Shown here one piece after another: positions 1-13,235 of a stretch of DNA of 56,366 bases (positions are counted from its first letter, which is position 1; each line of letters starts with the position of its first letter). The position numbers and the translations under genes were made by a program. The notes beneath the pieces are model-generated. The model did not search any database, was not told the DNA's origin, and saw only the letters and a program-made list of their open reading frames with translations. Origin of the DNA: Candidatus Omnitrophota bacterium (GTDB lineage: Bacteria; Omnitrophota; Gorgyraeia; Zapsychrales; Zapsychraceae); NCBI GenBank assembly GCA_029261065.1, contig JAJDCB010000004.1, forward strand, positions 1-56,366, given 5' to 3'.

Positions 1-1977
1 ACCCGTTTCCGTAATGAGATCAATGTCTGTCCAATTAATGCCAGCCGTTGTTAAAACATTTAAATCTGTCCAATTGACACCAGTATCACTTAAGACATCG
101 ATATCATTCCAATTAACTCCCGCTTCTGTCAGGACTTTAAAATCTTCCCAATTTATTCCTGCATCAGAGAGCACATCAATATCTGTCCAATTAACTCCCG
201 CATCACCAAGAACACGCATGTCATCCCAATTAATACCAGTGTCTGAAAGAACATCTAAATCGTTCCAATTGATGCCAGCTTCTGATAACACTTGAAGGTC
301 ATTCCAATTGACACCTGCATCGGATAACACATTGATGTCACTCCAATTAATTCCCGTTTCACTCAACGAACGTATGTCATTCCAATTCACGCCAGCATCA
401 CTTAAGACATCAATGTCATTCCAGTTGACACCGGCTTCAGTTAAAACTTGGAGATCATTCCAATTCACACCCGCATCACTTAATACATCAATATCATTCC
501 AATTGACGCCTGCTTGAGAAAGGACTGTAAAATCGTTCCAATTGATACCCGCACTACTAAGAACATCTATGTCTGTCCAATTAATACCTGCAGTAGATAA
601 AGAGGTTAAATCCGTCCAGTTAACACCCGCGGCACTTAAAACATCAATTTCAGTCCAATTGATTCCGGCATCGCCAAGGACTTGAAGATCATTCCAATTC
701 ACACCCGCATCACTTAAGACATCAATGTCTCCCCAGTTAATTCCGGACTCTGTCATCACTTTTAAATCTGTCCAATTCACACCCGCCTCAGCTAAAGTAT
801 TAAGGTCTTCCCAGTTAACACCAGCTAAAGATAATTCACCAATGTTTGCCCAATTAACACCAGCAGAACTTAACACATCTACATCAACCCAATTAATGCC
901 TGTCTCACTTAATGCTTTAAGGTCAGACCAATTCACACCCGCATCACTTAAGACATCTATATCAGACCAATTGATTCCGGCATCACTCATCGAACGAATG
1001 TCATCCCAATTTATACCTGTGTCACTGATAACATCTATATCTGACCAATTAATACCAGCTTCACTCAATACTCTAAAATCATCCCAGTTAACACCTGCAT
1101 CAGAAAAAACATCTATGTCTGTCCAGTTAATGCCCGCCGCGGTTAAAACACGTAAATCATCCCAATTAATTCCTGCACCACTTAGGATATCGATGTCTGA
1201 CCAATTGATACCTGCTTGAGTTAAAACACTCATGTCGCTCCAATTAATACCGGCATCACTCCATACATCTATATCAGACCAATTAATTCCTGCCTCACTT
1301 AAAACTTTCCAATCCGTCCAGTTAACACCGATATCACTCATGACCTGAATATCATCCCAATTCACACCCGCATTCGATAAGGTTGCCAAGTTATCCCAAT
1401 TAATCGTTTCAGCCCAATTAATTTTAGCTCCACTCATAACAGCGATGTCCGACCAATTAACACTTGATGTGCTCATAAATTGGATGTCAGCCCAATTAAC
1501 ACCAGCATCACTTAAAACATCAATGTCTGACCAATTAATGCCAGACTCAGACATGACCGTTAGGTTATCCCAATTAACTCCTGCCGAGGCAAGAACATCA
1601 AGGTCATTCCAGTTAATTCCACTTGAAGCAAGAATTCCAACATCTGTCCAGTTAACTCCCGAATCACTTAAGACATCAATGTCATCCCAATTGATACCTT
1701 TATTCGTTAAGCTAAATAAATCATCCCAGTTAACTCCTTTATCAGTTAAGACATCAAGATCCGTCCAATTTATACCTGCCTCACTCAAAGCTCGAATATC
1801 CGTCCAGTTAACACTTGTATCAATGGTGTCCGTTACACTCTTTATACTTGTGACATCCGTTCGAAGAAGATCAACATCGTCCCAATTGATCGTATCCGTA
1901 CTCTGTTTAATAACACCAATGTCATCCCAGTTGATAAGATCTGTCTTGGCTTTTATACCAGTGATATCATCCCAGTT
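1..1977 (-). repeat. Coding tandem repeat, 39 bp/13 aa, consensus G[IV]NWxD[IL]xVL[ST]xA
   Basis: Repeat Trp codons (cca on +) at 31, 70, 109 ... 1804: 47 units at 39-bp spacing except one 18-bp unit (INWAET, 1396-1414). Three more divergent NWDD units have Trp at 1882, 1927 and 1972. Confidence 0.97.
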
Positions 1978-2886
1978 GCTTATAACTCGTCGTCGCGTGT
2001 CAACGATGGTTGGTTTAATAACATCAAGAGAAACAAAGGCATTGTATTCGTTGGCTGTTCCAGATTCTAAGACAGTTATGTCTGCAAAGTACGTATCTTC
2101 AAAATCAGAAGGTGTCCAATTGGTGGAAGAAGTAAAAAGTTCTCGTGTTGTATTGAGTGAAAAATCCGTTGTGGCCAGACTCAATTCCGTTGTCGTTCCG
2201 TCGTTTTGATAAATCACAACAGCAGAAGTGTCACCCGTTTCTAAATCAAACTTATCATCACTTGATGCCACCCACGTTAAAATAGTGTAAGCATCATCGG
2301 ATTCATCCCAAACGGCTAAAATTTTAGGACCCGTACCTGTCTCAACATCAAACGAATTAGAAACAGTTGAAGGAAGACCGGGGGCTGTTGCAACAAGAGT
2401 AAAAAACAAACCAGACTTTGATATTCTTAACCCCTCAAAGCTGGCCACACCATTAGCAGCAACTAGTGTAGTTTCACCCTCTAAATTACCATTGCCAGGA
2501 TTGTTAAAAATATCAAGAGTAATGGGCGTTGTGTTATCAGTTTTTACAAGGTTGCCATAGGAGTCATGAATTTCAATCTCTGGTTGTCTTTCAAAAATCA
2601 AACCATGACGTTCTGAGGAAGGAACTTGTGTGAAAATTAATTTTGCAGCGGCTCCATGCTCAAGAGATTCACTTTGAGAAGAGTCTCCCGTCGTTAATCC
2701 TTCAGAGGACCCACCCGAGAATATATTATCACCAAGCGATGACTCTTCATCTCCTGCAAAACTTCCCCCCGTAAATTGCGCATAGACGACGGCGGGAGTT
2801 TGCGCAAAGACAAACATGAATATCACAAAACAAGAGATTGTTTTGTGAATGACTTGTTGAATTTTAGATTTTTTTCTGTGTTTCAT
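1..2886 (-). CDS. Giant exported repeat protein (3'-truncated by the window edge; at least 962 aa): signal peptide, FxGGSxxG motifs, Ig-like domain, 13-aa NW repeats
   Basis: Not in the ORF track because it has no stop in the window. Manual translation from ATG 2886 (upstream in-frame stop at 2917-2919) is open to base 1: MKHRKKSKIQQVIHKTISCFVIFMFVFAQTPAVVYA|QFTGGSFAG...IFSGGSSEG...AAKLIFTQVP...QPEIEIHDSYGNLV...GVASFEGLRISKSG..FTLVATAPGL...SNSFDV (Ig-like), then NW repeats. Confidence 0.93.
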   Translation of the reverse strand, partial: MKHRKKSKIQQVIHKTISCFVIFMFVFAQTPAVVYAQFTGGSFAGDEESSLGDNIFSGGSSEGLTTGDSSQSESLEHGAAAKLIFTQVPSSERHGLIFERQPEIEIHDSYGNLVKTDNTTPITLDIFNNPGNGNLEGETTLVAANGVASFEGLRISKSGLFFTLVATAPGLPSTVSNSFDVETGTGPKILAVWDESDDAYTILTWVASSDDKFDLETGDTSAVVIYQNDGTTTELSLATTDFSLNTTRELFTSSTNWTPSDFEDTYFADITVLESGTANEYNAFVSLDVIKPTIVDTRRRVISNWDDITGIKAKTDLINWDDIGVIKQSTDTINWDDVDLLRTDVTSIKSVTDTIDTSVNWTDIRALSEAGINWTDLDVLTDKGVNWDDLFSLTNKGINWDDIDVLSDSGVNWTDVGILASSGINWNDLDVLASAGVNWDNLTVMSESGINWSDIDVLSDAGVNWADIQFMSTSSVNWSDIAVMSGAKINWAETINWDNLATLSNAGVNWDDIQVMSDIGVNWTDWKVLSEAGINWSDIDVWSDAGINWSDMSVLTQAGINWSDIDILSGAGINWDDLRVLTAAGINWTDIDVFSDAGVNWDDFRVLSEAGINWSDIDVISDTGINWDDIRSMSDAGINWSDIDVLSDAGVNWSDLKALSETGINWVDVDVLSSAGVNWANIGELSLAGVNWEDLNTLAEAGVNWTDLKVMTESGINWGDIDVLSDAGVNWNDLQVLGDAGINWTEIDVLSAAGVNWTDLTSLSTAGINWTDIDVLSSAGINWNDFTVLSQAGVNWNDIDVLSDAGVNWNDLQVLTEAGVNWNDIDVLSDAGVNWNDIRSLSETGINWSDINVLSDAGVNWNDLQVLSEAGINWNDLDVLSDTGINWDDMRVLGDAGVNWTDIDVLSDAGINWEDFKVLTEAGVNWNDIDVLSDTGVNWTDLNVLTTAGINWTDIDLITETG

Positions 2887-2940: not shown

Positions 2941-4593
2941 CTATGGTGCCGTTCGGCCCAATCGTCCACCTGCAAAAATTCCTAATGACGAATCATATCT
3001 TTGGTTATATCCGTGACTATCTGGATCTTTAACAGCATACTTTCGCGTGGAGGTTTGAAAGTCTGACATATTAGATGATTGAAAATCACCTCCACGAAAA
3101 CCTGAACCAATTGTGCCTATGACACCACGAGAAGAATCAGTAGTGTCAATACCAGGCCAATCATTGTTGGTTGCGTTTCCTTCAAAACTTGTTAACACAC
3201 TTAACTCCCCATCACCATGGGTTCCTAAAAATTCTCGACCTTCTAAACGGCCAATCGTGACAACCATTTCATTTAAATTTCCGGATAACTCAAGAGCGCC
3301 GTAATAACCGGAGCCACTTGTCACACGGTTAGTTGAACTTTCTGCAAAAACACCAACGCGCAAAGCTCCTGGTTGTCCCTCAGCAATACCACCGACCCGA
3401 CCATCACCCGAACTCCAACCTAAACTGTTTCGATTAATATTGGCACTCCCATCAAAAATTTGCTCTGTTCCAATTTCATCTGTGTCTGGAAAAATTTCAC
3501 CAGCCTCACCTTGGTTGTACGAAGTGGTTCCCCAAACATATTCATTAGCTAATGGCGAAATATCAATACCGCGAGCCGTTTTTTCATATTCCAATTCTGT
3601 TAAAGGCCGTAAGCCCGCCCAGTCAGCATAAGCTAATAAATCAGGCCAAGAAACAAACGACATCGCTCGATCTGGACGCAACGTGGTCGCATCTGACTTT
3701 GGATCATTTACATCCCAACTCACGGTGTTTCGATTAACAACCCCATCAGAATTTTTTCCACCCTGAAAAGAATGGGTAACATCACGCGTCAGCTTCGCGG
3801 CATTAGAAAGCGTATTAAAAAACGCAACCCATTGGCCTTCTGTTAATTCATATTTCATGTGATAAAAGTCACCATAACCCTTAGGAAAGGATGAGGGAAT
3901 TAAGAAAATGGATCCTGTCGAACCTTCACCTGAGGCGCCTGTACTCGTATAATAATATCCATTTGTTGATGTATTTGTCGTCGTGATCGCACCTTCATTT
4001 TGAATATACCAAGGATCATTGTCGCTCGTTCCTTGTTTCAACTTATAATCTGAAGAACTATTTCCGTCTCCCGCATAAAAAGCGCCTTGTGGGACATAAA
4101 TCATTTCGATAGCAAACGCTCGATTAATCGTGTTAGCAGCCATAGCTTGATTGTCTGAAAGTCCATCTTGATTGTAATCCCAAACAAATTGAACATTTTG
4201 TGCTGAAATATTTCCAGTTGCCAAATCTGTTTTTTGCAAGAAAAAACCTTTTTCATCATTTGGAACAATCATTTCAAAACCGACGGGTGGTTGAAAGCCA
4301 GGAGGATTAGTTCCATTACTAGCCATACTGGCATGATGCCAGGTAACACCTGCATCTGTGGAATATTTAAGAAACACCCAAACAGCATCGTAATTATTGG
4401 TATCTCTCCAAGAATTTTCCCAAGTCAAATCACCTTGAAAAGTAATGGTATTAACAGCTTCATTCGTATCAACCACTTCAAAATTATCTATAGTTAGGTT
4501 ATTAGCCACAGCACCTTGAGCAGCAAACAAAACAATAAGTGCTACCAAACAATTCGTGATAAACTTTCTCAATTTTAAATTCTTTTTGGTCAT
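2941..4593 (-). CDS. Exported SUMF1/FGE-sulfatase-fold (C-type-lectin-fold) protein, paralog 1
   Basis: Signal peptide ending AVA|NNLTIDN; motifs WENSWR..NYDAVWVF, EMIYVPQGAF, MKYELTEGQWVAF, SWPDLLAYADWAGLRPLTELEYEK, ELSGNLNE, RGG, GGRLGR. Start moved from 4644 to ATG 4593 (GGAG upstream, 4 nt after the previous stop). Confidence 0.88.
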   Translation of the reverse strand: MTKKNLKLRKFITNCLVALIVLFAAQGAVANNLTIDNFEVVDTNEAVNTITFQGDLTWENSWRDTNNYDAVWVFLKYSTDAGVTWHHASMASNGTNPPGFQPPVGFEMIVPNDEKGFFLQKTDLATGNISAQNVQFVWDYNQDGLSDNQAMAANTINRAFAIEMIYVPQGAFYAGDGNSSSDYKLKQGTSDNDPWYIQNEGAITTTNTSTNGYYYTSTGASGEGSTGSIFLIPSSFPKGYGDFYHMKYELTEGQWVAFFNTLSNAAKLTRDVTHSFQGGKNSDGVVNRNTVSWDVNDPKSDATTLRPDRAMSFVSWPDLLAYADWAGLRPLTELEYEKTARGIDISPLANEYVWGTTSYNQGEAGEIFPDTDEIGTEQIFDGSANINRNSLGWSSGDGRVGGIAEGQPGALRVGVFAESSTNRVTSGSGYYGALELSGNLNEMVVTIGRLEGREFLGTHGDGELSVLTSFEGNATNNDWPGIDTTDSSRGVIGTIGSGFRGGDFQSSNMSDFQTSTRKYAVKDPDSHGYNQRYDSSLGIFAGGRLGRTAP

Positions 4594-4597
4594 AATG

Positions 4598-6187
4598 TTA
4601 TAAACTCCCATCATACGTTCTTGCCCCACGTCCGCCCACATCACTAAAAGATGATGCTTGGCCGTTTGCGGCTTGGCTACGATCAGAAATTCTTAAAGCT
4701 GTGCTCGCATCAATAAAAGAACCGCCTCTGAGACCAGACCCTATAGCCGATGTCACGCCACGGCTTGTAACAGCATCAATCCCTGGCCAATCTAATTCAT
4801 TGGCATTGCCTTCAAATCCGCTCGCTGAACTTAAAACACCATCGCCGTGCGTTCCAGCAAACCCGCGACCAGTTGCATTACCAATTGTTACAAGCTGCTC
4901 CATTAAATTCCCAGAAAGTTCCATAACACCGTAATATCCTGCACCCGCTAAAACACGTGTAGAATTTTCTTGAGCAAAAATTCCAGATCTCAACGGACCA
5001 AGACTATAATCAGCTCCACTACTACTGTCTCCACCTGTAAAAGAAATATTGTTATAATTCGCATTTGCATTTGCTGTTAAAATCGTTTCTGTTCCCGTTT
5101 CATCGGCTCCAGAGATTGAAGTGGCCGCGGTAATGGCTATATCTCCCCAAGCAAACTCTCCTTCTGTCGGTACCAAAGGACCACGACTAATTTTTTCAAA
5201 TTCTAACTCTGTCAACGGCCTTAAAGCGGCCCAATCAAGAAAGGCAGCTAGATCCATCCAACTTAAAAAACCAACAGCTCTTGAAGGGCGATCGGTAGAA
5301 CAAGCTAAAGAAGCCCCGCTACAATTAAGAGTGTTTCTTGATTGAACTGTATCCGTTGACTTATGACCTGAGTTTGTTAAATCGCGATTTGATCTTGCAT
5401 TATTAGAAGCTAAGGCATTAAAAAAATCACTCCATTGCCCTTCTGTAATTTCATATTTCATAACATAAAAGTCTCCATACCCTTTCGGATAACTAGCCGA
5501 AATAGAAAAGGAAGAACCTGTAGGATCCTCTGTTGCATTGCCAGCTGAAGAATATAAATAACCATCGTTAGTCGCATTAGAAACACTAATCGAAGAATCG
5601 CTTGAGATGTACCAAGGATCCGTATCGGCATTTCCTTCCATTAAAGAAGCGCTACTCGTTCCATAATCTCCAACATAAAACTCACCCTCAGGGATATAAA
5701 CCATCTCTAGAGCAAAAACGTTTAATTTAACCTCACTCTCATCAGTAAATCCGCAACTAGCGTAATCAATTTTGAATTGAACTTCATTTGAAGCAAGTGA
5801 TTCAACAACACCAAAATTTTTAGGTCTGATAAATGCACCTTTTTTGTCACTTGGCACATAAATATCAATATTTGTTGAATCCCCAGCAGTAAAACCTGCA
5901 GGATTGAGGCCAACACCTGAAAGTTCACAGATATTTTTACTTATCGGAGTTACTGCTGGGTCATATAAACGAACCGTCACCCACACAGCATCATGATTAC
6001 TTTTCGTTTTCCAAGAATTTTCCCAGGAAACATCAAATTGAACCATGACAGTATCGTTAGACGGGTTTCTTTCTTCGAGTGATACATTATCGATTGACAA
6101 ATTGTTGGCAAATAGGGCAGGAACAGAAATAAAAGCTATACTGAGGATTGTCAGGAAGGAAAGGGTTATTTTAAAAACCTTTGTCAT
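4598..6187 (-). CDS. Exported SUMF1/FGE-sulfatase-fold protein, paralog 2
   Basis: Signal peptide ending LFA|NNLSIDN; same motifs (WENSWK..NHDAVWV, MKYEITEGQW, WAALRPLTELEFEK, MELSGNLME, RGGSF, GGRGAR); RBS GAGGTG before the ATG. Confidence 0.88.
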   Translation of the reverse strand: MTKVFKITLSFLTILSIAFISVPALFANNLSIDNVSLEERNPSNDTVMVQFDVSWENSWKTKSNHDAVWVTVRLYDPAVTPISKNICELSGVGLNPAGFTAGDSTNIDIYVPSDKKGAFIRPKNFGVVESLASNEVQFKIDYASCGFTDESEVKLNVFALEMVYIPEGEFYVGDYGTSSASLMEGNADTDPWYISSDSSISVSNATNDGYLYSSAGNATEDPTGSSFSISASYPKGYGDFYVMKYEITEGQWSDFFNALASNNARSNRDLTNSGHKSTDTVQSRNTLNCSGASLACSTDRPSRAVGFLSWMDLAAFLDWAALRPLTELEFEKISRGPLVPTEGEFAWGDIAITAATSISGADETGTETILTANANANYNNISFTGGDSSSGADYSLGPLRSGIFAQENSTRVLAGAGYYGVMELSGNLMEQLVTIGNATGRGFAGTHGDGVLSSASGFEGNANELDWPGIDAVTSRGVTSAIGSGLRGGSFIDASTALRISDRSQAANGQASSFSDVGGRGARTYDGSL

Positions 6188-6376: not shown

Positions 6377-7174
6377 TTACCTCTCTAACGGTGAATCCAC
6401 TAATCCACGAATGAATAATTCTGCTTTTACGATTTTTTCTTTTACAAAATCAGAATCTTTCGCTGTTGGATTCAAATACAAATACATCTTGTAATGCTTT
6501 AATGCTGTTTTCTGATCATTTAACTGCTCCCCACTAACAAAAGCCAAATTAAAATGGGAATCTGGATCATCTGGCATTAAAGTAACAGCTTGATAATATT
6601 CTCGAACAGCAATTTCATATTCACCTTTTTGGAAATAGATATTTCCCATATTGTAATGAGCTTTGGCCGCATCTTCTCTTAGTCTCTCATCACCTTCAGT
6701 AAAAGCATCAATGCGTGATAACAAATCTGTTGTTTCATTTTCACGCCCCTTTACTTCCTCAGTGCTTTTTGATTTATTTGCTGCCAATAAAAACACACCA
6801 TCTGTTATTGACTTAGAATCTTGATTAGATTTTTGAATACTATTTCTCGTCGCTGTTTTACTTTTTAAAGAAGCTAATTGCATCGTATCATGAACAACTG
6901 GCATCTCGTTTTTTGTAACTTTCGCGTTCATTCTTAATTTACTAATTTGAGTTTCTAACCTTTGATTTTTCGTGGCCAAACTATGATTTTGTTCGATAAC
7001 ATTTTTTAGCGTTTCACTCATTGCTGCAACTTGCTTTTCTTTGATGGTTAGATCGGCACTTGCAAATGTTGCGCTAAGAACAAACATTACTGTCAGTGAA
7101 AGAGTTAAAGCTGTGAGACTTTTTTTCATCTTTCTTTGATTTTCATATTTTGTGGCCATAATTTTTATCCTCAC
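6377..7174 (-). CDS. Exported coiled-coil + TPR protein
   Basis: Signal peptide (ASA|D); coiled coil; TPR units AKAHYNMGNIYFQKGEYEIAVREYYQAVTLMP and DSHFNLA...ALKHYKMYLYLNP. The true start may be a downstream Met. Confidence 0.85.
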   Translation of the reverse strand: MRIKIMATKYENQRKMKKSLTALTLSLTVMFVLSATFASADLTIKEKQVAAMSETLKNVIEQNHSLATKNQRLETQISKLRMNAKVTKNEMPVVHDTMQLASLKSKTATRNSIQKSNQDSKSITDGVFLLAANKSKSTEEVKGRENETTDLLSRIDAFTEGDERLREDAAKAHYNMGNIYFQKGEYEIAVREYYQAVTLMPDDPDSHFNLAFVSGEQLNDQKTALKHYKMYLYLNPTAKDSDFVKEKIVKAELFIRGLVDSPLER

Positions 7175-7197: not shown

Positions 7198-8802
7198 TTA
7201 GTCTGTACTATATGACTTAAACGGCTTAATTGTGCCTTGAACTTTCATGTAATCATCTTTACCCGTAACAATCCTAGGTGTAATAAATATGACAATTTCT
7301 GTTTTAGCAAAATCATCATTTGTTCGACCAAACATAGGGCCAAAAAGTGGAAGATCCATAAGCACAGGAAAACCTTTCTTTGTGTGAACCTTATCATTCT
7401 TCTTTAAACCACCCATAATAATTGTGTGAGCATCTTTAACAAGAACTGTCGTTTCAACTTCAGTTTTATTGACTTGAGGAATTCCGCCCCCTTGAGAGGA
7501 AACCTCTCCAACAACAGATGAGATTTCTGGTCTTAATCGCATTGTGACGTAACCATCATCATTAATGGTCGGTGTCACGTTTAGTTTTAAACCAACGTCC
7601 ACAAACCGAACATCTTCACTAGTAATGGCATTATCACCTGTTCCGGAAGTCGTTGAGATAATATAGGGAACAGTATCACCGACATGAATCTTTGCTTCTT
7701 CATTATTGGTAATTAAGACCGTTGGATTCGATAAGATTTTTGTATCACTAACCTGCTCTAATGATCGAACCGTTGTCTCAAAAGCATCTTCACTAAAATC
7801 ACCTACAGCAAATTGACCATAATGACTAGCCAGTTCGTCACTAGCAGAAATTTTAGCGTTTTGGCTACCCAGATAGAAGTTTGAAAAACTTAATTTTTTT
7901 ATTTGACTATTGCTGCTGTCCCTAAAATCAAGTTGCCAGTCAATACCGACATCATATTTTGGTTTCATTACGATTTGTAAAATACGGGCGCTTATTAATA
8001 CTTCTTTTGTAGGAGAATCTAATTTAGCTAATATTTTCTCGATTTCCTTTTTGCGATCTGGAAATACACGAACAATGAGCTTATTGGAACGCTCATCAGC
8101 CATAATTGATCCAACACTCTTAGCATCAATTCGCGATCTTAGCTTATCTGCCACAACATCAGCACTAGCATACTGCAATGTGTAAACAATTGTCTCAAGC
8201 GGCTTCTCTATTTCTTTAATAGCAGCCTTCATAAGTGCAATCCCCTCAGCAGTATCAATCATAACAACAGATCCCGTGTCTTCATCTATAATAATCTTAC
8301 CGACATTGCTTTTAATACTGTCCAAAGCAGCCAAAACATAACTTGGTTTGGAATATTTAAGATGAATAATCTCAACCATTGTTTTATCACTAAAACTTTT
8401 TCCAAACATCGCTTCATACTCTTGCTCGGTCAAAACTTGTACAATATTACCCTGAACTTTGTAGGCCAAACGATTGGAGATAATGACAATATCTAGAACA
8501 TCTTTGACCGATACGTTTTCTAAGAAAACAGTAGCACGCCCTTCGACACTTGGACTTATAACGACATTAAATTCACCCTCGTCAGCAAGGAACTTAATTA
8601 TGTCGACAATATTCATATCCCGTATTTCAAGCCTTATCTTTCGTTTCATTCTTTCAGAAAGAGCGCCTTTGACATCGGAAATCTTAATGGGCTTCCCATC
8701 AGCAAACAAATCTGTTGCTTGACCTATCATGCCCGCAAAAGCACAGGTAAAGACAACCAAAGGAATACACCATTTTAAAGATTTATTATTTTGAGTTATC
8801 AT
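7198..8802 (-). CDS. Type II secretion / type IV pilus secretin (GspD/PilQ family)
   Basis: N-domains (ADERSNKLIV, LDSPTKEVLISARILQ) and secretin domain (ILSNPTVLITNNEEAKIHVGD, DVGLKLNVTPTIN, PVLMDLPLFGPMF, TEIVIFITPRIV). Confidence 0.95.
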   Translation of the reverse strand: MITQNNKSLKWCIPLVVFTCAFAGMIGQATDLFADGKPIKISDVKGALSERMKRKIRLEIRDMNIVDIIKFLADEGEFNVVISPSVEGRATVFLENVSVKDVLDIVIISNRLAYKVQGNIVQVLTEQEYEAMFGKSFSDKTMVEIIHLKYSKPSYVLAALDSIKSNVGKIIIDEDTGSVVMIDTAEGIALMKAAIKEIEKPLETIVYTLQYASADVVADKLRSRIDAKSVGSIMADERSNKLIVRVFPDRKKEIEKILAKLDSPTKEVLISARILQIVMKPKYDVGIDWQLDFRDSSNSQIKKLSFSNFYLGSQNAKISASDELASHYGQFAVGDFSEDAFETTVRSLEQVSDTKILSNPTVLITNNEEAKIHVGDTVPYIISTTSGTGDNAITSEDVRFVDVGLKLNVTPTINDDGYVTMRLRPEISSVVGEVSSQGGGIPQVNKTEVETTVLVKDAHTIIMGGLKKNDKVHTKKGFPVLMDLPLFGPMFGRTNDDFAKTEIVIFITPRIVTGKDDYMKVQGTIKPFKSYSTD

Positions 8803-9412
8803 AGCGTATTATTATCTCCTCATCTTCATAGCCTAGTTTGATACTATCGGCATAAATGGTTTTTACAAGTATATCGCCCAATTTGTCTCCAACTTTCTTA
8901 AAATGGGTTTCACTTTTCACGGTATCCTCAATCATCGCCGCAGCACTTTCAACACGGTCAAACCAAGATATACCGACAAGCTTTAAGTGTTGGGTTTTCT
9001 CAACGATCCGCCTATTCTCATCAGAAACATCAACATCTGCTCTTAAATTTTGTTCTTCGGTAAATGGGTAAAAAATGTTGCGGGCTGAAAACTTCATTCT
9101 GTAGAGTGGCAATGGTCTCTTGTCTGGTTCAAAATTATCGTTCTTATTTCCGCTAACCGGCCCACCTAATTTTGTGGCAATGTTTACAGGTTTCCCCATC
9201 TTCTTTTTACCTTTCACAAATTCATTAACAGCAAATCCCGCACCCGCAACAATCAAAAGTAACAATACTAAATTAAGAACTTTTATCAAGCCAATAACAT
9301 CAACAGATTTTTTTGGCTTCTTTTCTTCAGCTTTATTTTGCACAGCACCACTTGCTTCTAACATCTTTAAAAGCTTTTGGTCTGCCGTTTCTTTTTTTGC
9401 TTTAGCTGTCAT
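8786..9412 (-). CDS. Bitopic GspC/PilP-like secretion accessory protein
   Basis: One TM segment, RNIFYPF, then LKLVGISW...AAAMIED...KVGD.LG.ILVKTI.ADSIKL (HR-domain-like). Overlaps the secretin start. Confidence 0.7.
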   Translation of the reverse strand: MTAKAKKETADQKLLKMLEASGAVQNKAEEKKPKKSVDVIGLIKVLNLVLLLLIVAGAGFAVNEFVKGKKKMGKPVNIATKLGGPVSGNKNDNFEPDKRPLPLYRMKFSARNIFYPFTEEQNLRADVDVSDENRRIVEKTQHLKLVGISWFDRVESAAAMIEDTVKSETHFKKVGDKLGDILVKTIYADSIKLGYEDEEIIIRYDNSK

Positions 9413-9466: not shown

Positions 9467-10366
9467 TTATACTTGATTAATAACTTCAACACCCTCATTT
9501 TTCTCCGCCGAGAAAAACTGTTTTTCTTTTTCAATGACATCCCTAACAAACGTGTTATCAACAATTTTCTGATCTTCCATAACTAATTCTTTCATAATTT
9601 TATGACACAACATGGTAATTTTTCTTGGGTAACCTTTTGTGTAATTATAGACCTCACTAATCGCATCATCTAAAAAAATCTTAGCACCACCTTTGTATCC
9701 CGCTTTATTAATTCGAAAATTTATTAGCTCTTTAGTTTCATTGACATCCAAAGGATTTAATGTGAATTTAAAACTTATGCGATCTAAAAAATTACTCATA
9801 TGCACAATTTTGGAATAAAGTTCAAGCTGACCTAACAAAACAAGTTGGATTAATTTATGCTCATTCGTTTCGAAATTTAACAAAATACGTAATGATTCCA
9901 AAGTGGCCAAATCCAACTTTTGAGCCTCATCCACAATCAAAACTATAGTGCGATTCTCCTTAAGCGTTTTTTGAATCAAAAACGTCTCAATCACATCTCT
10001 AAGCTCCAATAAATCACAATTTTTCACATCTAGATTATCAGGCAAATCAATATCCATGTTTTTCACAAGTGACAGTAAGAATTGATCTTGTGTACTAAAA
10101 GAAGGATCAAGAATCATATGAAAGATGATATCTCCGCGTTTATTAAGCTCATGTAGAAGTTTTCTAGAAAGCGTGGTTTTTCCCGTTCCAACATCGCCTA
10201 AAATGACGGATAAGCCCCTTCTTAGGCGTAATTCTATCAATAAGTTCGTTAAAGCGAGATCATGTTCGCGGGTATGATAAAAAAATTCGGGATTAGGACT
10301 GGTAGAAAAAGGCTCCCTTTGGAAACCAAGAATGGAATAATAACCTAATGTATTATCTGCGGGCAT
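9467..10366 (-). CDS. ExeA/GspA-family AAA ATPase
   Basis: GFQREPFSTSPNPEFFY, Walker A GDVGTGKT, Walker B LIVDEAQ, QLVLLGQLEL, GYPRKI. No C-terminal peptidoglycan-binding domain. Confidence 0.92.
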   Translation of the reverse strand: MPADNTLGYYSILGFQREPFSTSPNPEFFYHTREHDLALTNLLIELRLRRGLSVILGDVGTGKTTLSRKLLHELNKRGDIIFHMILDPSFSTQDQFLLSLVKNMDIDLPDNLDVKNCDLLELRDVIETFLIQKTLKENRTIVLIVDEAQKLDLATLESLRILLNFETNEHKLIQLVLLGQLELYSKIVHMSNFLDRISFKFTLNPLDVNETKELINFRINKAGYKGGAKIFLDDAISEVYNYTKGYPRKITMLCHKIMKELVMEDQKIVDNTFVRDVIEKEKQFFSAEKNEGVEVINQV

Positions 10367-10443: not shown

Positions 10444-11436
10444 TTATTTGGCTTTTTTTAATAGGTTTTTAGCAAAAACATTTATAATCCCCGTCGAGAA
10501 ACCAAATGTTCTTGCAAAAGCTCTCATAAACATAACAAAACCATAAAAAAAAAGTTTTCTTTTCTTTTTTTGCATGATCCAGCTGTAGTAAAGCTCTATC
10601 ATTAATAAACACAAAGAGATTGATGCGCCGCCGATAAAACCTAAAGAAGAATTTACAAAGATGCCATAAATAATACTCATGCAAATCAACAAAGAAAACG
10701 GAACCTCTAACATATCCTTCCAAAATGTGTACTGATCCCCACCAACCATGTTTGGATGCGTTTTATAAAGCCAAGCTCGCCAAAATCCATGTCGAAATTG
10801 CTCCTGAAGATACTTTTTAACACTAGAAGGGTGGTTATGACGCACAATAGCATCTAAGCAAAAATACATTTCATACCCCTTTTTAGTGATTTTATAACTT
10901 AGATCATTATCTTCTCCACTGGCATGGAGATAGGACTCATCAAAACCACCAACCTGCTTAAAAATGGACTTACGCATCCCCACGTTATAACTACCAAAAA
11001 CAACCGTTTTTTCACCCATCAAATACTGATGACGATAAATTATCTCCTGATGTACGCATAAGGCCAATGTGCTTTCTGGATTAGCAATACCATAGCTGCC
11101 CGCCACGACATCTGCTTTTTTATGATTAAAATAAATCATCGCATTTTTAATCCAGTCTTGATCGGCAAAGCAATCGGAGTCCGTAAAAAAAATAACATCT
11201 CCCTTGGCCATTGCAGCCCCTTTATTCCGAGCCTTGGCTGGACCAGCATTAGTTTGATGAAAATATCTCACTTGGTTATATCGTTTTATTAGCTCAGCAG
11301 ATTTATCGCTAGAACCATCATCAACAACAATAACCTCGATAGGTTGATAACTTTGTTGAAAAACACAATCAAGCACTTGGCTTATCGTTTGTTCACAATT
11401 GTAAGCAGGAATAATTATACTGACGAGAGAAGACAT
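10444..11436 (-). CDS. Glycosyltransferase family 2 with C-terminal TM helices
   Basis: VSIIIPAYN, VVDDGSSD, NAGPAKARN, FTDSD, GEDNDL. Start adjusted to ATG 11436 to avoid overlap. Confidence 0.92.
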   Translation of the reverse strand: MSSLVSIIIPAYNCEQTISQVLDCVFQQSYQPIEVIVVDDGSSDKSAELIKRYNQVRYFHQTNAGPAKARNKGAAMAKGDVIFFTDSDCFADQDWIKNAMIYFNHKKADVVAGSYGIANPESTLALCVHQEIIYRHQYLMGEKTVVFGSYNVGMRKSIFKQVGGFDESYLHASGEDNDLSYKITKKGYEMYFCLDAIVRHNHPSSVKKYLQEQFRHGFWRAWLYKTHPNMVGGDQYTFWKDMLEVPFSLLICMSIIYGIFVNSSLGFIGGASISLCLLMIELYYSWIMQKKKRKLFFYGFVMFMRAFARTFGFSTGIINVFAKNLLKKAK

Positions 11437-11440
11437 GGAT

Positions 11441-12106
11441 TTAAGGTTTTCGGGCCACTGTGAATAACAGCATTCCAAATAGACGTCCTACCCATTTATC
11501 TGGAGAGAAGGCAAAAGGAAACGTATTAAGACCTCCTTGATTAACAACAAACGCCCCATTTCTTTGATTTAAATCAAGCAGTTGTTTAAATACAAAAGGC
11601 GTTTCTTCAATGCCTGGCATATACAAAGGACGAATGATTTCCCACGGAGAAAATCGATTAGGCACAACTGTAACAATGACACCATCTGTTGTTAGAAGAC
11701 TAAACAAATTTGTAAAAATAACATCTTGCTCTGCTGCTGTAAAATGTTCAAATAATCCGTCTGTAAAAATAATATCAAAACGATTATCAATATCTCCCGC
11801 CAAATTCGCTCTTAAAAGATCTTTTTGTAATAATGTCGTTTGACCCTGTGTCATGGTTCGCGCTATGTCTAATGCTTCTTGTGAATAGTCTAAAGATGAG
11901 GTTTTCATCCCGCTATCACAAAAGTATTTTGAAAAAAATCCACTCCCACATCCCGCATCTAATGCACACCCACCGGGCTTTACATATTCTTGCAAGACCG
12001 ACATAATTCTTTTTTTAGACCAACTGATCTTTGTAAATTTCTTTGTTTGATCTAAACTCCAAAAATGATTCCAATCTTGCGATTGAGGCATTGCTGTTTT
12101 ATTCAT
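11441..12106 (-). CDS. Class I SAM-dependent methyltransferase
   Basis: ALDAGCGSG motif I; FDIIFTDGLFEHF. Confidence 0.9.
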   Translation of the reverse strand: MNKTAMPQSQDWNHFWSLDQTKKFTKISWSKKRIMSVLQEYVKPGGCALDAGCGSGFFSKYFCDSGMKTSSLDYSQEALDIARTMTQGQTTLLQKDLLRANLAGDIDNRFDIIFTDGLFEHFTAAEQDVIFTNLFSLLTTDGVIVTVVPNRFSPWEIIRPLYMPGIEETPFVFKQLLDLNQRNGAFVVNQGGLNTFPFAFSPDKWVGRLFGMLLFTVARKP

Positions 12107-12465
12107 TAACTATTACCCTTATCTTCTTTTTTTAATTTTTCAATCTCGTATTCTAACACACCAATTTTTTGTGCCACCGAATCATTACGATTGTTTTGTT
12201 GGCATAAAAATATCGTCATTAATAAACTTAAAAATACAAACACTGCTAACAAAACAAAGAAAATAAAATTACTCGCTAATTCAAAACCAAAAAAATCAGC
12301 CAAAGAAAATAACAACTGATCAAAGATCGAAAATACAATAGATAATAACGAAACAAACAGCCAACCAGCTGCATATTTAAATGTCAATTTTTCTTTTCGA
12401 ATCAATTCAATAATTAACAAAAAGATAATTGAGGAAAGAAAAATCGCAAGATACTTAATATTCAT
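12106..12465 (-). CDS. DUF2304-family small membrane protein (GacJ/Rv3632-like partner of a polyprenyl-phosphate sugar synthase)
   Basis: Three TM segments, IELIRKEKL..KYA..W pattern, C-terminal coiled coil (SVAQKIGVLE); directly follows a DPM1-like GT2. Confidence 0.85.
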   Translation of the reverse strand: MNIKYLAIFLSSIIFLLIIELIRKEKLTFKYAAGWLFVSLLSIVFSIFDQLLFSLADFFGFELASNFIFFVLLAVFVFLSLLMTIFLCQQNNRNDSVAQKIGVLEYEIEKLKKEDKGNS

Positions 12466-12473
12466 AAATCGCT

Positions 12474-13235
12474 TTAAATTTCTTTAGCTTTAAGTTTATC
12501 CAATAAAATGGCAACCGTAACCTTTATCATGTAATAAAGTGTTTTTAGATATCGTATAGAGCTGTGTCCTGCGACACGCTTGCGCATCGTAACAGGAACC
12601 TCGATTATTTTCGCATTATATCGTCGGGCAACAACAATGGCCTCAGGCTCAGGAAAGTCTTGTGGATAATAGCGAGCAAATACATCAATACACTTTCGAT
12701 CAAAGGCCCTAAAGCCCGAAGTTGGATCAGATATTTTACATCCCGTTAAAAAACTAATGAGGCGTGCAAAAAAATTAATACCAATACGCCTTACAAAAGC
12801 AGAACGATAACTAAGAAATGGTGGAATAAAACGACTACCTATTGTCATATTCATACCATTATTAAAAATGGGTTCTAAAATATTTGCTAAAAACTTTACA
12901 TCATGTTGTCCATCGGCATCAACTTGAACAGCAATGTCAAAATTGTTATCGCGCGCAAACTGAAAGCCTGTTTGAACAGCACCACCTATTCCTAAATTAA
13001 AAGGTAAAGAAACAACATCAACACCCATCGCTTTTGCTTCTTGAGCAGTCTTATCCTTAGAACCATCATTGATCACTAAAATTTGAAGAGGGTACGATAA
13101 TGAAAGTATATCTTGGATTGTTGAGCGAATACTTCCCTCTTCGTTGTAAGCTGGAATTATAATTAATGTTTTATGCGTTAATAACTGATGAGAAATCGAT
13201 TCTGCAGATATATTTGGATTAAGTGTATGAGACAT
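12474..13235 (-). CDS. DPM1-like GT2 (polyprenyl-phosphate sugar synthase-like)
   Basis: IIIPAYNEE, INDGSKD, NLGIGGAVQTG, VDADGQHD, IGSRF, DPTSGFRA, R..GHSSI. Confidence 0.92.
   Translation of the reverse strand: MSHTLNPNISAESISHQLLTHKTLIIIPAYNEEGSIRSTIQDILSLSYPLQILVINDGSKDKTAQEAKAMGVDVVSLPFNLGIGGAVQTGFQFARDNNFDIAVQVDADGQHDVKFLANILEPIFNNGMNMTIGSRFIPPFLSYRSAFVRRIGINFFARLISFLTGCKISDPTSGFRAFDRKCIDVFARYYPQDFPEPEAIVVARRYNAKIIEVPVTMRKRVAGHSSIRYLKTLYYMIKVTVAILLDKLKAKEI

Follow-up and report, generated by a model that had tools for sequence, protein, structure and literature searches.

The window analyzed here comprises the first 56,366 bases of a contig (G000:C24:1-56366) from a Candidatus Omnitrophota bacterium, whose genome, G000, totals 2.7 Mb in 36 contigs (genomes are designated G, loci L and contigs C). 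A minus-strand open reading frame (ORF; 2886..1) encodes a giant repeat protein that runs off the contig at base 1 and has at least 962 residues. According to the translation, residues 1-36 (2779..2886, minus strand) form a signal peptide consisting of a charged n-region (KHRKKSK), a hydrophobic core and the terminal VVYA, a layout that is repeated in the homologues. The putative cleavage site VYA/Q was deduced from the shape of the signal peptide and from the A-x-A/Q pattern of all close homologues. Just behind the signal peptide two F-x-G-G-S-x-x-G motifs are found. The mature Q37 together with motif 1 (F38-T-G-G-S-F-A-G45) occupies 2752..2778 (F38-G45: 2752-2775), and motif 2 (F56-S-G-G-S-S-E-G63) is located at 2698..2721, both on the minus strand, with a Phe-to-Phe distance of 18 residues. 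The entire stretch (residues 37-63; 2778-2698, minus) reads QFTGGSFAGDEESSLGDNIFSGGSSEG, and a linker of Ser, Thr, Gly and acidic residues (residues 64-78; 2653..2697, minus), recognized by its variable alignment columns, follows. Our analysis suggests that the twin motifs represent a short N-terminal recognition tag present in two copies, of which the first is usually located at the cleavage site, and that this tag may be functionally coupled to one subfamily of exported, Cys-less proteins with the fold of the formylglycine-generating enzyme (FGE).

Two genes for such FGE-fold proteins are encoded next to the giant gene. FGE_prox (2941..4644, minus; PF03781, E 2.1e-11) adjoins it, and the second paralog, FGE_dist (4598..6187, minus; PF03781, E 1.1e-8), follows. 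Beyond them lies a secretin module, all on the minus strand: a tetratricopeptide repeat (TPR) protein (6377..7174; Pfam TPR families, syntenic in the loci of 27 relatives), a secretin of the GspD/PilQ type (7198..8802; PF00263, E 3e-48, with TIGR02515 and TIGR02517 matching below their cut-offs), a syntenic protein of 208 amino acids without a Pfam or NCBIfam match (U208; 8786..9412) and an ExeA/GspA-like AAA ATPase (9467..10366; PF13401, E 1.5e-21; TIGR03015, E 3e-54, below its cut-off). Genes for a family 2 glycosyltransferase (GT2), a methyltransferase (MT) and a further GT2 (10444-13235) are syntenic with the module in nearly all relatives. The gene order GT2-MT-GT2-ATPase-U208-secretin-TPR-[FGE,FGE]-giant is kept in the loci of 27 relatives. 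Features of a type II secretion or type IV pilus secretin module are therefore present in the form of the secretin domain, the neighbouring ExeA-like ATPase and the TPR protein. An ATPase of the T2SSE type is encoded at G000:C26:9343-10503, about 8 kb beyond the likely end of the giant gene, and the genome contains eight full-length ATPases of this kind.

A six-frame scan of the whole genome detected the pattern [FY].GGS..G in 2 of 12,960 stop-to-stop frames of at least 50 amino acids, and in two copies in the giant protein only. When a looser pattern beside a signal peptide was used, the giant protein was the sole match among 8,204 frames of at least 60 amino acids. Both motifs were present right behind the signal peptide in all 11 family-level homologues first fetched. 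When 23 Omnitrophota mature N-termini are aligned, no columns except Q1, G4, G5, G22 and G23 are invariant, and the Ser/Thr/Gly linker behind the motifs is free to vary. The twin motifs are a real conserved feature of the giant protein's mature N-terminus, and the initial annotation, which had placed them directly behind the cleavage site, is confirmed by the translation, by the homologues and by the invariant Q1 and GG pairs. That they are a functionless by-product of a low-complexity Gly/Ser/acidic leader is extremely improbable. The leader is biased toward G, S, D and E, which makes short Gly-rich matches likelier, but Q1 and both GG pairs are invariant whereas the linker around them varies, the motif spacing is held at 18-19 residues in 31 twin loci, members of no fewer than five other phyla also have the motif beside this gene family, and the giant protein is the only one of its kind in the genome. 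The chance explanation was rejected, since the invariant columns, the link to the FGE gene number and the enrichment outside the Omnitrophota contradict it.

For 43 distinct Omnitrophota loci, drawn from 44 tabulated giant-protein N-termini, motif copies were counted against the FGE genes alongside. The second row for L077, an internal fragment, was dropped, the rows for L024 and L074, in which the pattern had matched the signal peptide, were corrected by eye, and L062 and L099, with fragmented FGE genes in poor assemblies, were counted as pairs. The twin motif is found in 31 of the 32 loci with at least two adjacent FGE genes, 28 of which have a spacing of 18 residues and 3 a spacing of 19, and in none of the 11 loci where at most one FGE gene adjoins the giant gene. 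The window itself and L010 of G018 are two further cases of an FGE pair with a twin motif, beyond the 43 loci. Motif 2 is confined to the Omnitrophota loci with at least two adjacent FGE genes, and a copy of motif 1 is still present in loci with one or none. Loci L027, L083 and L095, each with a single FGE gene, have one motif each; a single copy is present in five loci where no FGE gene adjoins the giant gene, degenerate in one of them (G040/L061), and their genomes contain FGE-subfamily matches elsewhere. Only a degenerate remnant without the GG is left in G048/L060. In all, four relatives have one clear motif and two more a degenerate one, their FGE genes being located solely at other sites in the genome. 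In genomes G059 and G037, which are devoid of FGE-subfamily matches, the giant proteins possess a different N-terminus, the motif is absent and the secretin module is intact. Because these two genomes lack the motif but have the module, the motif follows the FGE genes and not the secretin. Among 60 relatives, the giant gene and an FGE gene occur together in 28, the giant gene alone in 2, an FGE gene alone in 11 and neither in 19; at least 7 of the 11 relatives with only an FGE gene stop at a contig break.

Homologues of the FGE-fold proteins encoded away from the secretin locus in G057, G047 and G054 have no motif protein alongside. The sequence FSGGTFLG in G047 was dismissed as a candidate, since it falls within hydrophobic sequence, at position 126 in a stop-to-stop frame of 224 residues. 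A 399-amino-acid secreted protein without a Pfam family is encoded directly upstream of an unlinked FGE-subfamily gene at L056:2710-3906 (G014:C37). It contains three [FY]SGG[PT]G motifs 157-158 residues apart, each at the start of a domain that is repeated; the signal peptide immediately precedes the first of them.

A scan with the subfamily alignment, in which each GTDB species was represented by one genome, gave at least 659 relatives, and the best 80 matches represent 66 distinct loci. Of these, 35 are non-Omnitrophota loci, with FGE proteins 33-41% identical over nearly the full length; they belong to Bacteroidota, Ignavibacteria, Verrucomicrobiota, Kiritimatiellia, Lentisphaerae, Bdellovibrionota, Pseudomonadota and one Elusimicrobia record. 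An adjacent same-strand ORF with the motif [FYW].GG..[DEAGRS]G is present in 18 of the 35; in L105, L116, L121 and L130 the motif is a variant whose second Gly is replaced by Ser or altered in another minor way, which raises the total to 22. These 22 loci are from Bacteroidota, Ignavibacteria, Verrucomicrobiota, Kiritimatiellia and Lentisphaerae. In one additional locus, L132, a motif protein is encoded 2.9 kb from the FGE gene. Only 6 of the 739 other ORFs of at least 150 amino acids in all 66 loci match, a background somewhat lowered by non-coding frames among the 739. The motif is thus strongly enriched near the FGE subfamily, the check proposed in the initial annotation, and its statement that FGE-fold proteins of Bacteroidota neighbour secreted proteins with [FY]xGGxxDG motifs holds among the loci surveyed.

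In most non-Omnitrophota carriers the motif is the first element past the signal peptide (AQ/Y-x-G-G...), and it is often arrayed in 3-9 copies with a period of 25-28 residues opposite a single FGE gene. From 77 motif instances the consensus [AV]-[LKQ]-[YF]-x-G-[GS]-[NS]-[GYF]-D-G-[FY] was derived, and the cross-phylum consensus of the tag is [YF]-x-G-[GS]-x-x-D-G-[FY]. The carriers are otherwise unrelated and contain T9SS (type IX secretion system) C-terminal sorting domains, Big_12, dockerin or 'coathanger' domains. No Pfam or NCBIfam model matches the motif region in them, and their public names mention the T9SS domain only. Among 101 sampled Flavobacteriaceae genomes the array protein was detected in 3, each time directly beside an FGE-subfamily gene. 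For the Jiulongibacter array protein, 3 homologues were obtained in a word-indexed search; for the Algibacter array, HMMER detected 142 among representatives (E<=0.001).

Such regular arrays could also be explained by a small beta repeat that folds by itself, perhaps with bound calcium, in which the motif forms the turn and which the FGE-fold protein does not read directly. The FGE-fold protein would then be part of the same surface structure or bind, for instance, a glycan, and the Omnitrophota twin would be what is left of such an array, namely two units. The period of 25-28 amino acids, with the consensus LYxGGxGDG followed by a strand-like stretch, fits this explanation, as does a Gly/Asp-rich core that may resemble calcium-binding turns in general. 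An AlphaFold2 (AF2) model of a Flavobacteriaceae motif array (40 alignment rows) is all-beta with strands between the motifs, but its low confidence (pLDDT 58, pTM 0.48) establishes no fold. Most single copies, moreover, are located exactly at the mature N-terminus before unrelated domains (Big_12, dockerin, T9SS cargo), as a portable tag would be, and the copy number in Omnitrophota follows that of the FGE genes. We therefore consider a structural repeat unlikely, and a recognition tag remains the preferred interpretation of the motif.

The proposed partners of the tag were characterized by sequence and by structure prediction. The likely true start of FGE_prox is the Met of MTKKNL near 4590; a signal peptide and the mature N-terminus NNLTIDN follow. 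FGE_dist has a signal peptide, then the mature N-terminus NNLSIDN, and the two proteins are 45% identical. Most mature N-termini of the subfamily, in several phyla, read NN[IL]x[VI]xN. An ordinary signal peptide without a lipobox Cys was found in the 37 non-Omnitrophota N-termini inspected as well as in the two FGE-fold proteins of the window. Both the tag protein and the FGE-fold protein of the proposed pair have conserved mature N-termini. The AF2 model of FGE_prox (pLDDT 75, pTM 0.85) consists of an N-terminal beta-sandwich (approximately residues 1-140) and an FGE domain. In structure comparison the FGE domain resembles FGE 5nxl (VIA Z 13.0, rmsd 3.8 over 223 residues), PvdO (Z 12.5) and EgtB (Z 12.1), and the best Foldseek match of the FGE-fold model is FGE 6xtp (E 2.8e-4). 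Sequence similarity to solved FGEs is limited to a core of about 65 residues. For the N-domain, matches were obtained to the immunoglobulin (Ig)-like peptide-binding domains of staphylococcal adhesins of the MSCRAMM type (VIA Z 6-7.6), among them ClfB 4f24 (Z 7.6, rmsd 3.0, 111 residues), values below 8 that may reflect merely a common arrangement.

Mature FGE_prox does not contain any Cys, and across 112 aligned subfamily sequences, which come from all phyla, the share of Cys stays below 40% in every column. Because the catalytic Cys pair is absent, formylglycine chemistry is excluded for the subfamily. By sequence, this absence argues against FGE chemistry only, not against every chemistry. 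The FGE-fold proteins might be enzymes of a different chemistry whose substrate is a residue of the [FY]xGG...DG motif, modified while the protein is still in the periplasm and not yet exported. Several charged residues (e.g., K218, E220, R259, D295, R300 and E413) are near-universal among the 112 sequences, and only two columns are His (75-80%), one of them at 80%. One FGE-subfamily gene is often found opposite 3-9 motif copies, which would be natural for repeated substrate sites. Both partners have Sec signal peptides and in Bacteroidota only the motif proteins, not the FGE-fold proteins, carry the T9SS C-terminal sorting domain, which would place their contact in the periplasm before export. 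However, since Cys is not conserved and no His is fully so, there is neither an FGE copper site nor an obvious iron site, the motif, in which Gly, Asp and an aromatic residue are fixed, suggests no candidate chemistry, and the nearest fold relatives lacking these residues, PorK, GldK and GldJ, are structural (PMC12421860). A modifying enzyme thus appears improbable to us, although not negligible, and docking on the tag is the function that we favour.

The FGE-family tree (FastTree), whose deep nodes are weak, places FGE_prox and FGE_dist in two starred clades that are sisters within Omnitrophota. L084, L086/L094 and L091, lineages with a twin motif, appear to use other combinations of paralogs, which hints at repeated duplication, with the same weak deep nodes. 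A divergent, long-branched clade of the subfamily (L042, L044, L050 and L051 from G026, G041, G001 and G042, respectively) is located in a different conserved cluster, with proteins of about 550 (692 in L044), 200 and 475 amino acids encoded upstream and three to four genes downstream. FGE-subfamily proteins fused to C-terminal extensions are encoded at L115:7893-10043 (deltaproteobacterial) and, in Bacteroidales, at L131:7794-11012 and L133:7917-10076; the extensions consist of a Pro/Thr/Tyr-rich repeat tail or of other domains. The Pfam matches of the window ORFs include no reverse transcriptase, a feature expected near the TvpA-type variable proteins (FGE-type C-type lectins) of diversity-generating retroelements, in a general scan that did not involve a search for template and variable repeats.

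We read the motif as a recognition tag because the FGE-fold proteins lack the catalytic cysteines. The Sec-exported FGE-fold proteins would bind the exposed tag in the periplasm. Docking is favoured because the catalytic residues are gone, because PorK, GldK and GldJ are docking hubs, and because tag number and spacing follow the number of FGE genes. Judged from the sequences, we give about even chances to the proposal that the motif is a recognition tag on which the FGE-fold proteins dock. In this Omnitrophota lineage the FGE gene would have been duplicated, and the tag duplicated with a fixed spacing of 18 residues. Since both gene and tag appear duplicated and the spacing is fixed, the dist/prox pair could clamp the N-terminus of the giant fibre, for example by anchoring it at the neighbouring secretin with the repeats extending outward. 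The physical binding, its compartment and the anchoring role of the pair are deduced from these patterns. A prediction of the complex of FGE_prox with the 64-residue mature N-terminus gave a score of 0.00 ('no answer') with controls not run, and weighs neither way.

Several observations weigh against this proposal. L086 and L094 have four FGE genes yet two motifs, and G043/L058 has two FGE genes yet one motif; a masked stretch of four codons begins 15 residues past the motif in G043 and is too short for a second copy at +18 if the mask is of true length. In G057 two unlinked FGE genes are accompanied by one motif. The related loci are not independent: on the secretin tree the twin and the pair states agree in 28 of 28 rows with 3 changes each, and only one independent contrast is located on well-supported branches. 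Thirteen of the 35 non-Omnitrophota loci have no adjacent motif ORF (four of the 13 stop at a contig break), and although the FGE subfamily is present in 6 of the 101 Flavobacteriaceae genomes, the proteins of three of them are more divergent and have no motif ORF alongside. A single FGE gene facing arrays of up to nine motifs suits an enzyme acting on repeated sites at least equally well. The initial annotation had suggested a portable docking or modification site for this FGE subfamily, possibly with one motif per paralog. The link to the subfamily stands, based on the enrichment and on the distribution of the twin motif in Omnitrophota. The ratio of one motif per paralog does not hold as a strict rule, since it fails at L086, L094 and G043/L058, at the single copies without an adjacent FGE gene and at the arrays of up to nine copies; it is a trend only.

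Behind the tag and its linker, the giant protein continues with a conserved N-terminal region (residues 79-330; 1897..2652, minus) that may be Ig-like according to its sequence pattern. This region detects homologues in 31 of 61 genomes, G000 included (E<=0.001), and is not matched by any Pfam or NCBIfam model. It is followed by an array of 13-residue (39-nt) G-[IV]-N-W-x-D repeats (1..1896, minus; Tandem Repeats Finder period 39) that is cut at the contig end and in which at least 43 G[IV]NW copies were counted. The repeats break the assembly, and plus-strand ORFs at 2-2209 are shadows of them. The segment G000:C26:1-1254 opens with the same repeats and finishes in a 238-residue terminal domain, so that the start of C26 likely holds the C-terminal 418 residues of the giant gene product. 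In the relative G049, the tagged N-terminus and the 238-residue C-terminal domain are encoded in one open frame of 8,091 residues, and whole giant frames in relatives comprise 4,000-8,091 residues. The gene next to the giant gene's end on C26 is followed by a frame resembling the alpha subunit of F-type ATP synthases. A Pfam match of the giant protein to Ntox33 (Bacterial toxin 33; E 3.6e-17), in which no single stretch passes, was taken as repeat-driven noise and not as a toxin domain, and scattered NCBIfam matches to the repeats were read in the same way. Given the syntenic GT2 genes, glycosylation of the Ser/Thr-rich linker that follows the tag is conceivable. A second very long frame (6,147 residues) on the minus strand of G000:C21 has no N-terminal motif and is unrelated to the tag.

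The tag could be part of an N-terminal sorting or anchoring principle shared across phyla, in which the tag is an address label, the periplasmic Cys-less FGE-fold protein its receptor irrespective of the export route, and the twin tag with a duplicated receptor a two-point clamp. We put this wider proposal forward tentatively and regard it as possible but doubtful. If it were true, the N-terminus would be the handle by which the receptor holds, orders or anchors surface proteins, whichever way they are exported; T9SS cargo in Bacteroidota and Ignavibacteria and secretin-exported giant fibres in Omnitrophota would be served alike, and the two-point clamp would keep a fibre of several thousand residues on the cell. 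For the Omnitrophota, the tag suggests how a giant repeat fibre encoded beside a secretin could be held on the cell. It would also provide a concrete partner for a large family (at least 659 relatives) that is labelled in databases only as "formylglycine-generating enzyme family protein", and it adds a short N-terminal motif outside all Pfam and NCBIfam models, found on surface proteins of at least six phyla. The Omnitrophota are uncultured; the function is accessible in cultured Bacteroidota carriers, namely Algibacter pectinivorans, Neotamlana nanhaiensis and Jiulongibacter sediminis.

A literature search found no description of the tag motif or of the motif/FGE gene pair. The main text of the preprints on Omnitrophota giant genes does not mention formylglycine, sulfatase, secretin or FGE, while their supplements might list such genes. 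The N-terminal tag is, as far as this search goes, previously undescribed, and non-catalytic FGE folds that act as docking proteins are already known in PorK, GldK and GldJ. PorK, GldK and GldJ, which belong to the type IX secretion ring and the gliding track in Bacteroidota, are outer-membrane-anchored lipoproteins. The FGE-fold proteins of the window have, in contrast, signals of the signal peptidase I type and a mature NN[IL] N-terminus without Cys. They share with PorK, GldK and GldJ the FGE-like fold without active-site cysteines, which in those proteins forms a hub beside a secretion machine on which partner proteins of the cell envelope dock (PMC12421860). They differ from them in the additional N-terminal Ig-like domain and in their apparent partner, a short N-terminal motif instead of PorN/GldN, and their subfamily extends to phyla without a T9SS. 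Neither FGE-fold protein of the window matched the GldK and GldJ models at E<0.01, one Verrucomicrobia homologue matched TIGR03525 at E 0.0059 (16 bits versus a cut-off of 350), and PorK is absent among the Foldseek and VIA matches listed for the FGE_prox model.

The true FGE (SUMF1) modifies CxPxR in unfolded sulfatases. The window's pair resembles this system in its fold and in its logic, since in both an exported protein is matched to a secreted client through a short linear motif. The catalytic copper-binding Cys pair that FGE has near its C-terminus is missing, and the neighbouring protein bears [FY]xGG...DG instead of CxPxR; no sulfatase family of Pfam or NCBIfam matched the giant protein or 15 neighbours from other loci. 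The consensus of RTX beta-rolls is the calcium-binding nonapeptide GGxGxDxUx. A relation to them was rejected, as successive motifs are spaced by 18-19 residues in Omnitrophota and by 25-28 in other groups and the core is G-[GS]-x-x-D-G, not the nine-residue GGxGxD register.

In giant adhesins of the LapA type, which are exported by type I secretion, an N-terminal retention element stays at the outer-membrane pore and thereby keeps the repeat adhesin attached to the cell. The role proposed for the tag and the FGE-fold pair at the secretin would be similar to that of the LapA retention module, although export here would proceed by Sec and secretin and the two are not related in sequence. Like the T9SS C-terminal domain, LPXTG and PEP-CTERM, the tag behaves as a short, portable and position-specific signal on unrelated secreted proteins with a dedicated partner family, and many Bacteroidota carriers bear both the tag and the T9SS C-terminal domain. 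Unlike these signals, it is N-terminal, can be arrayed, and its partner would be an FGE-fold protein rather than a sortase-like peptidase.

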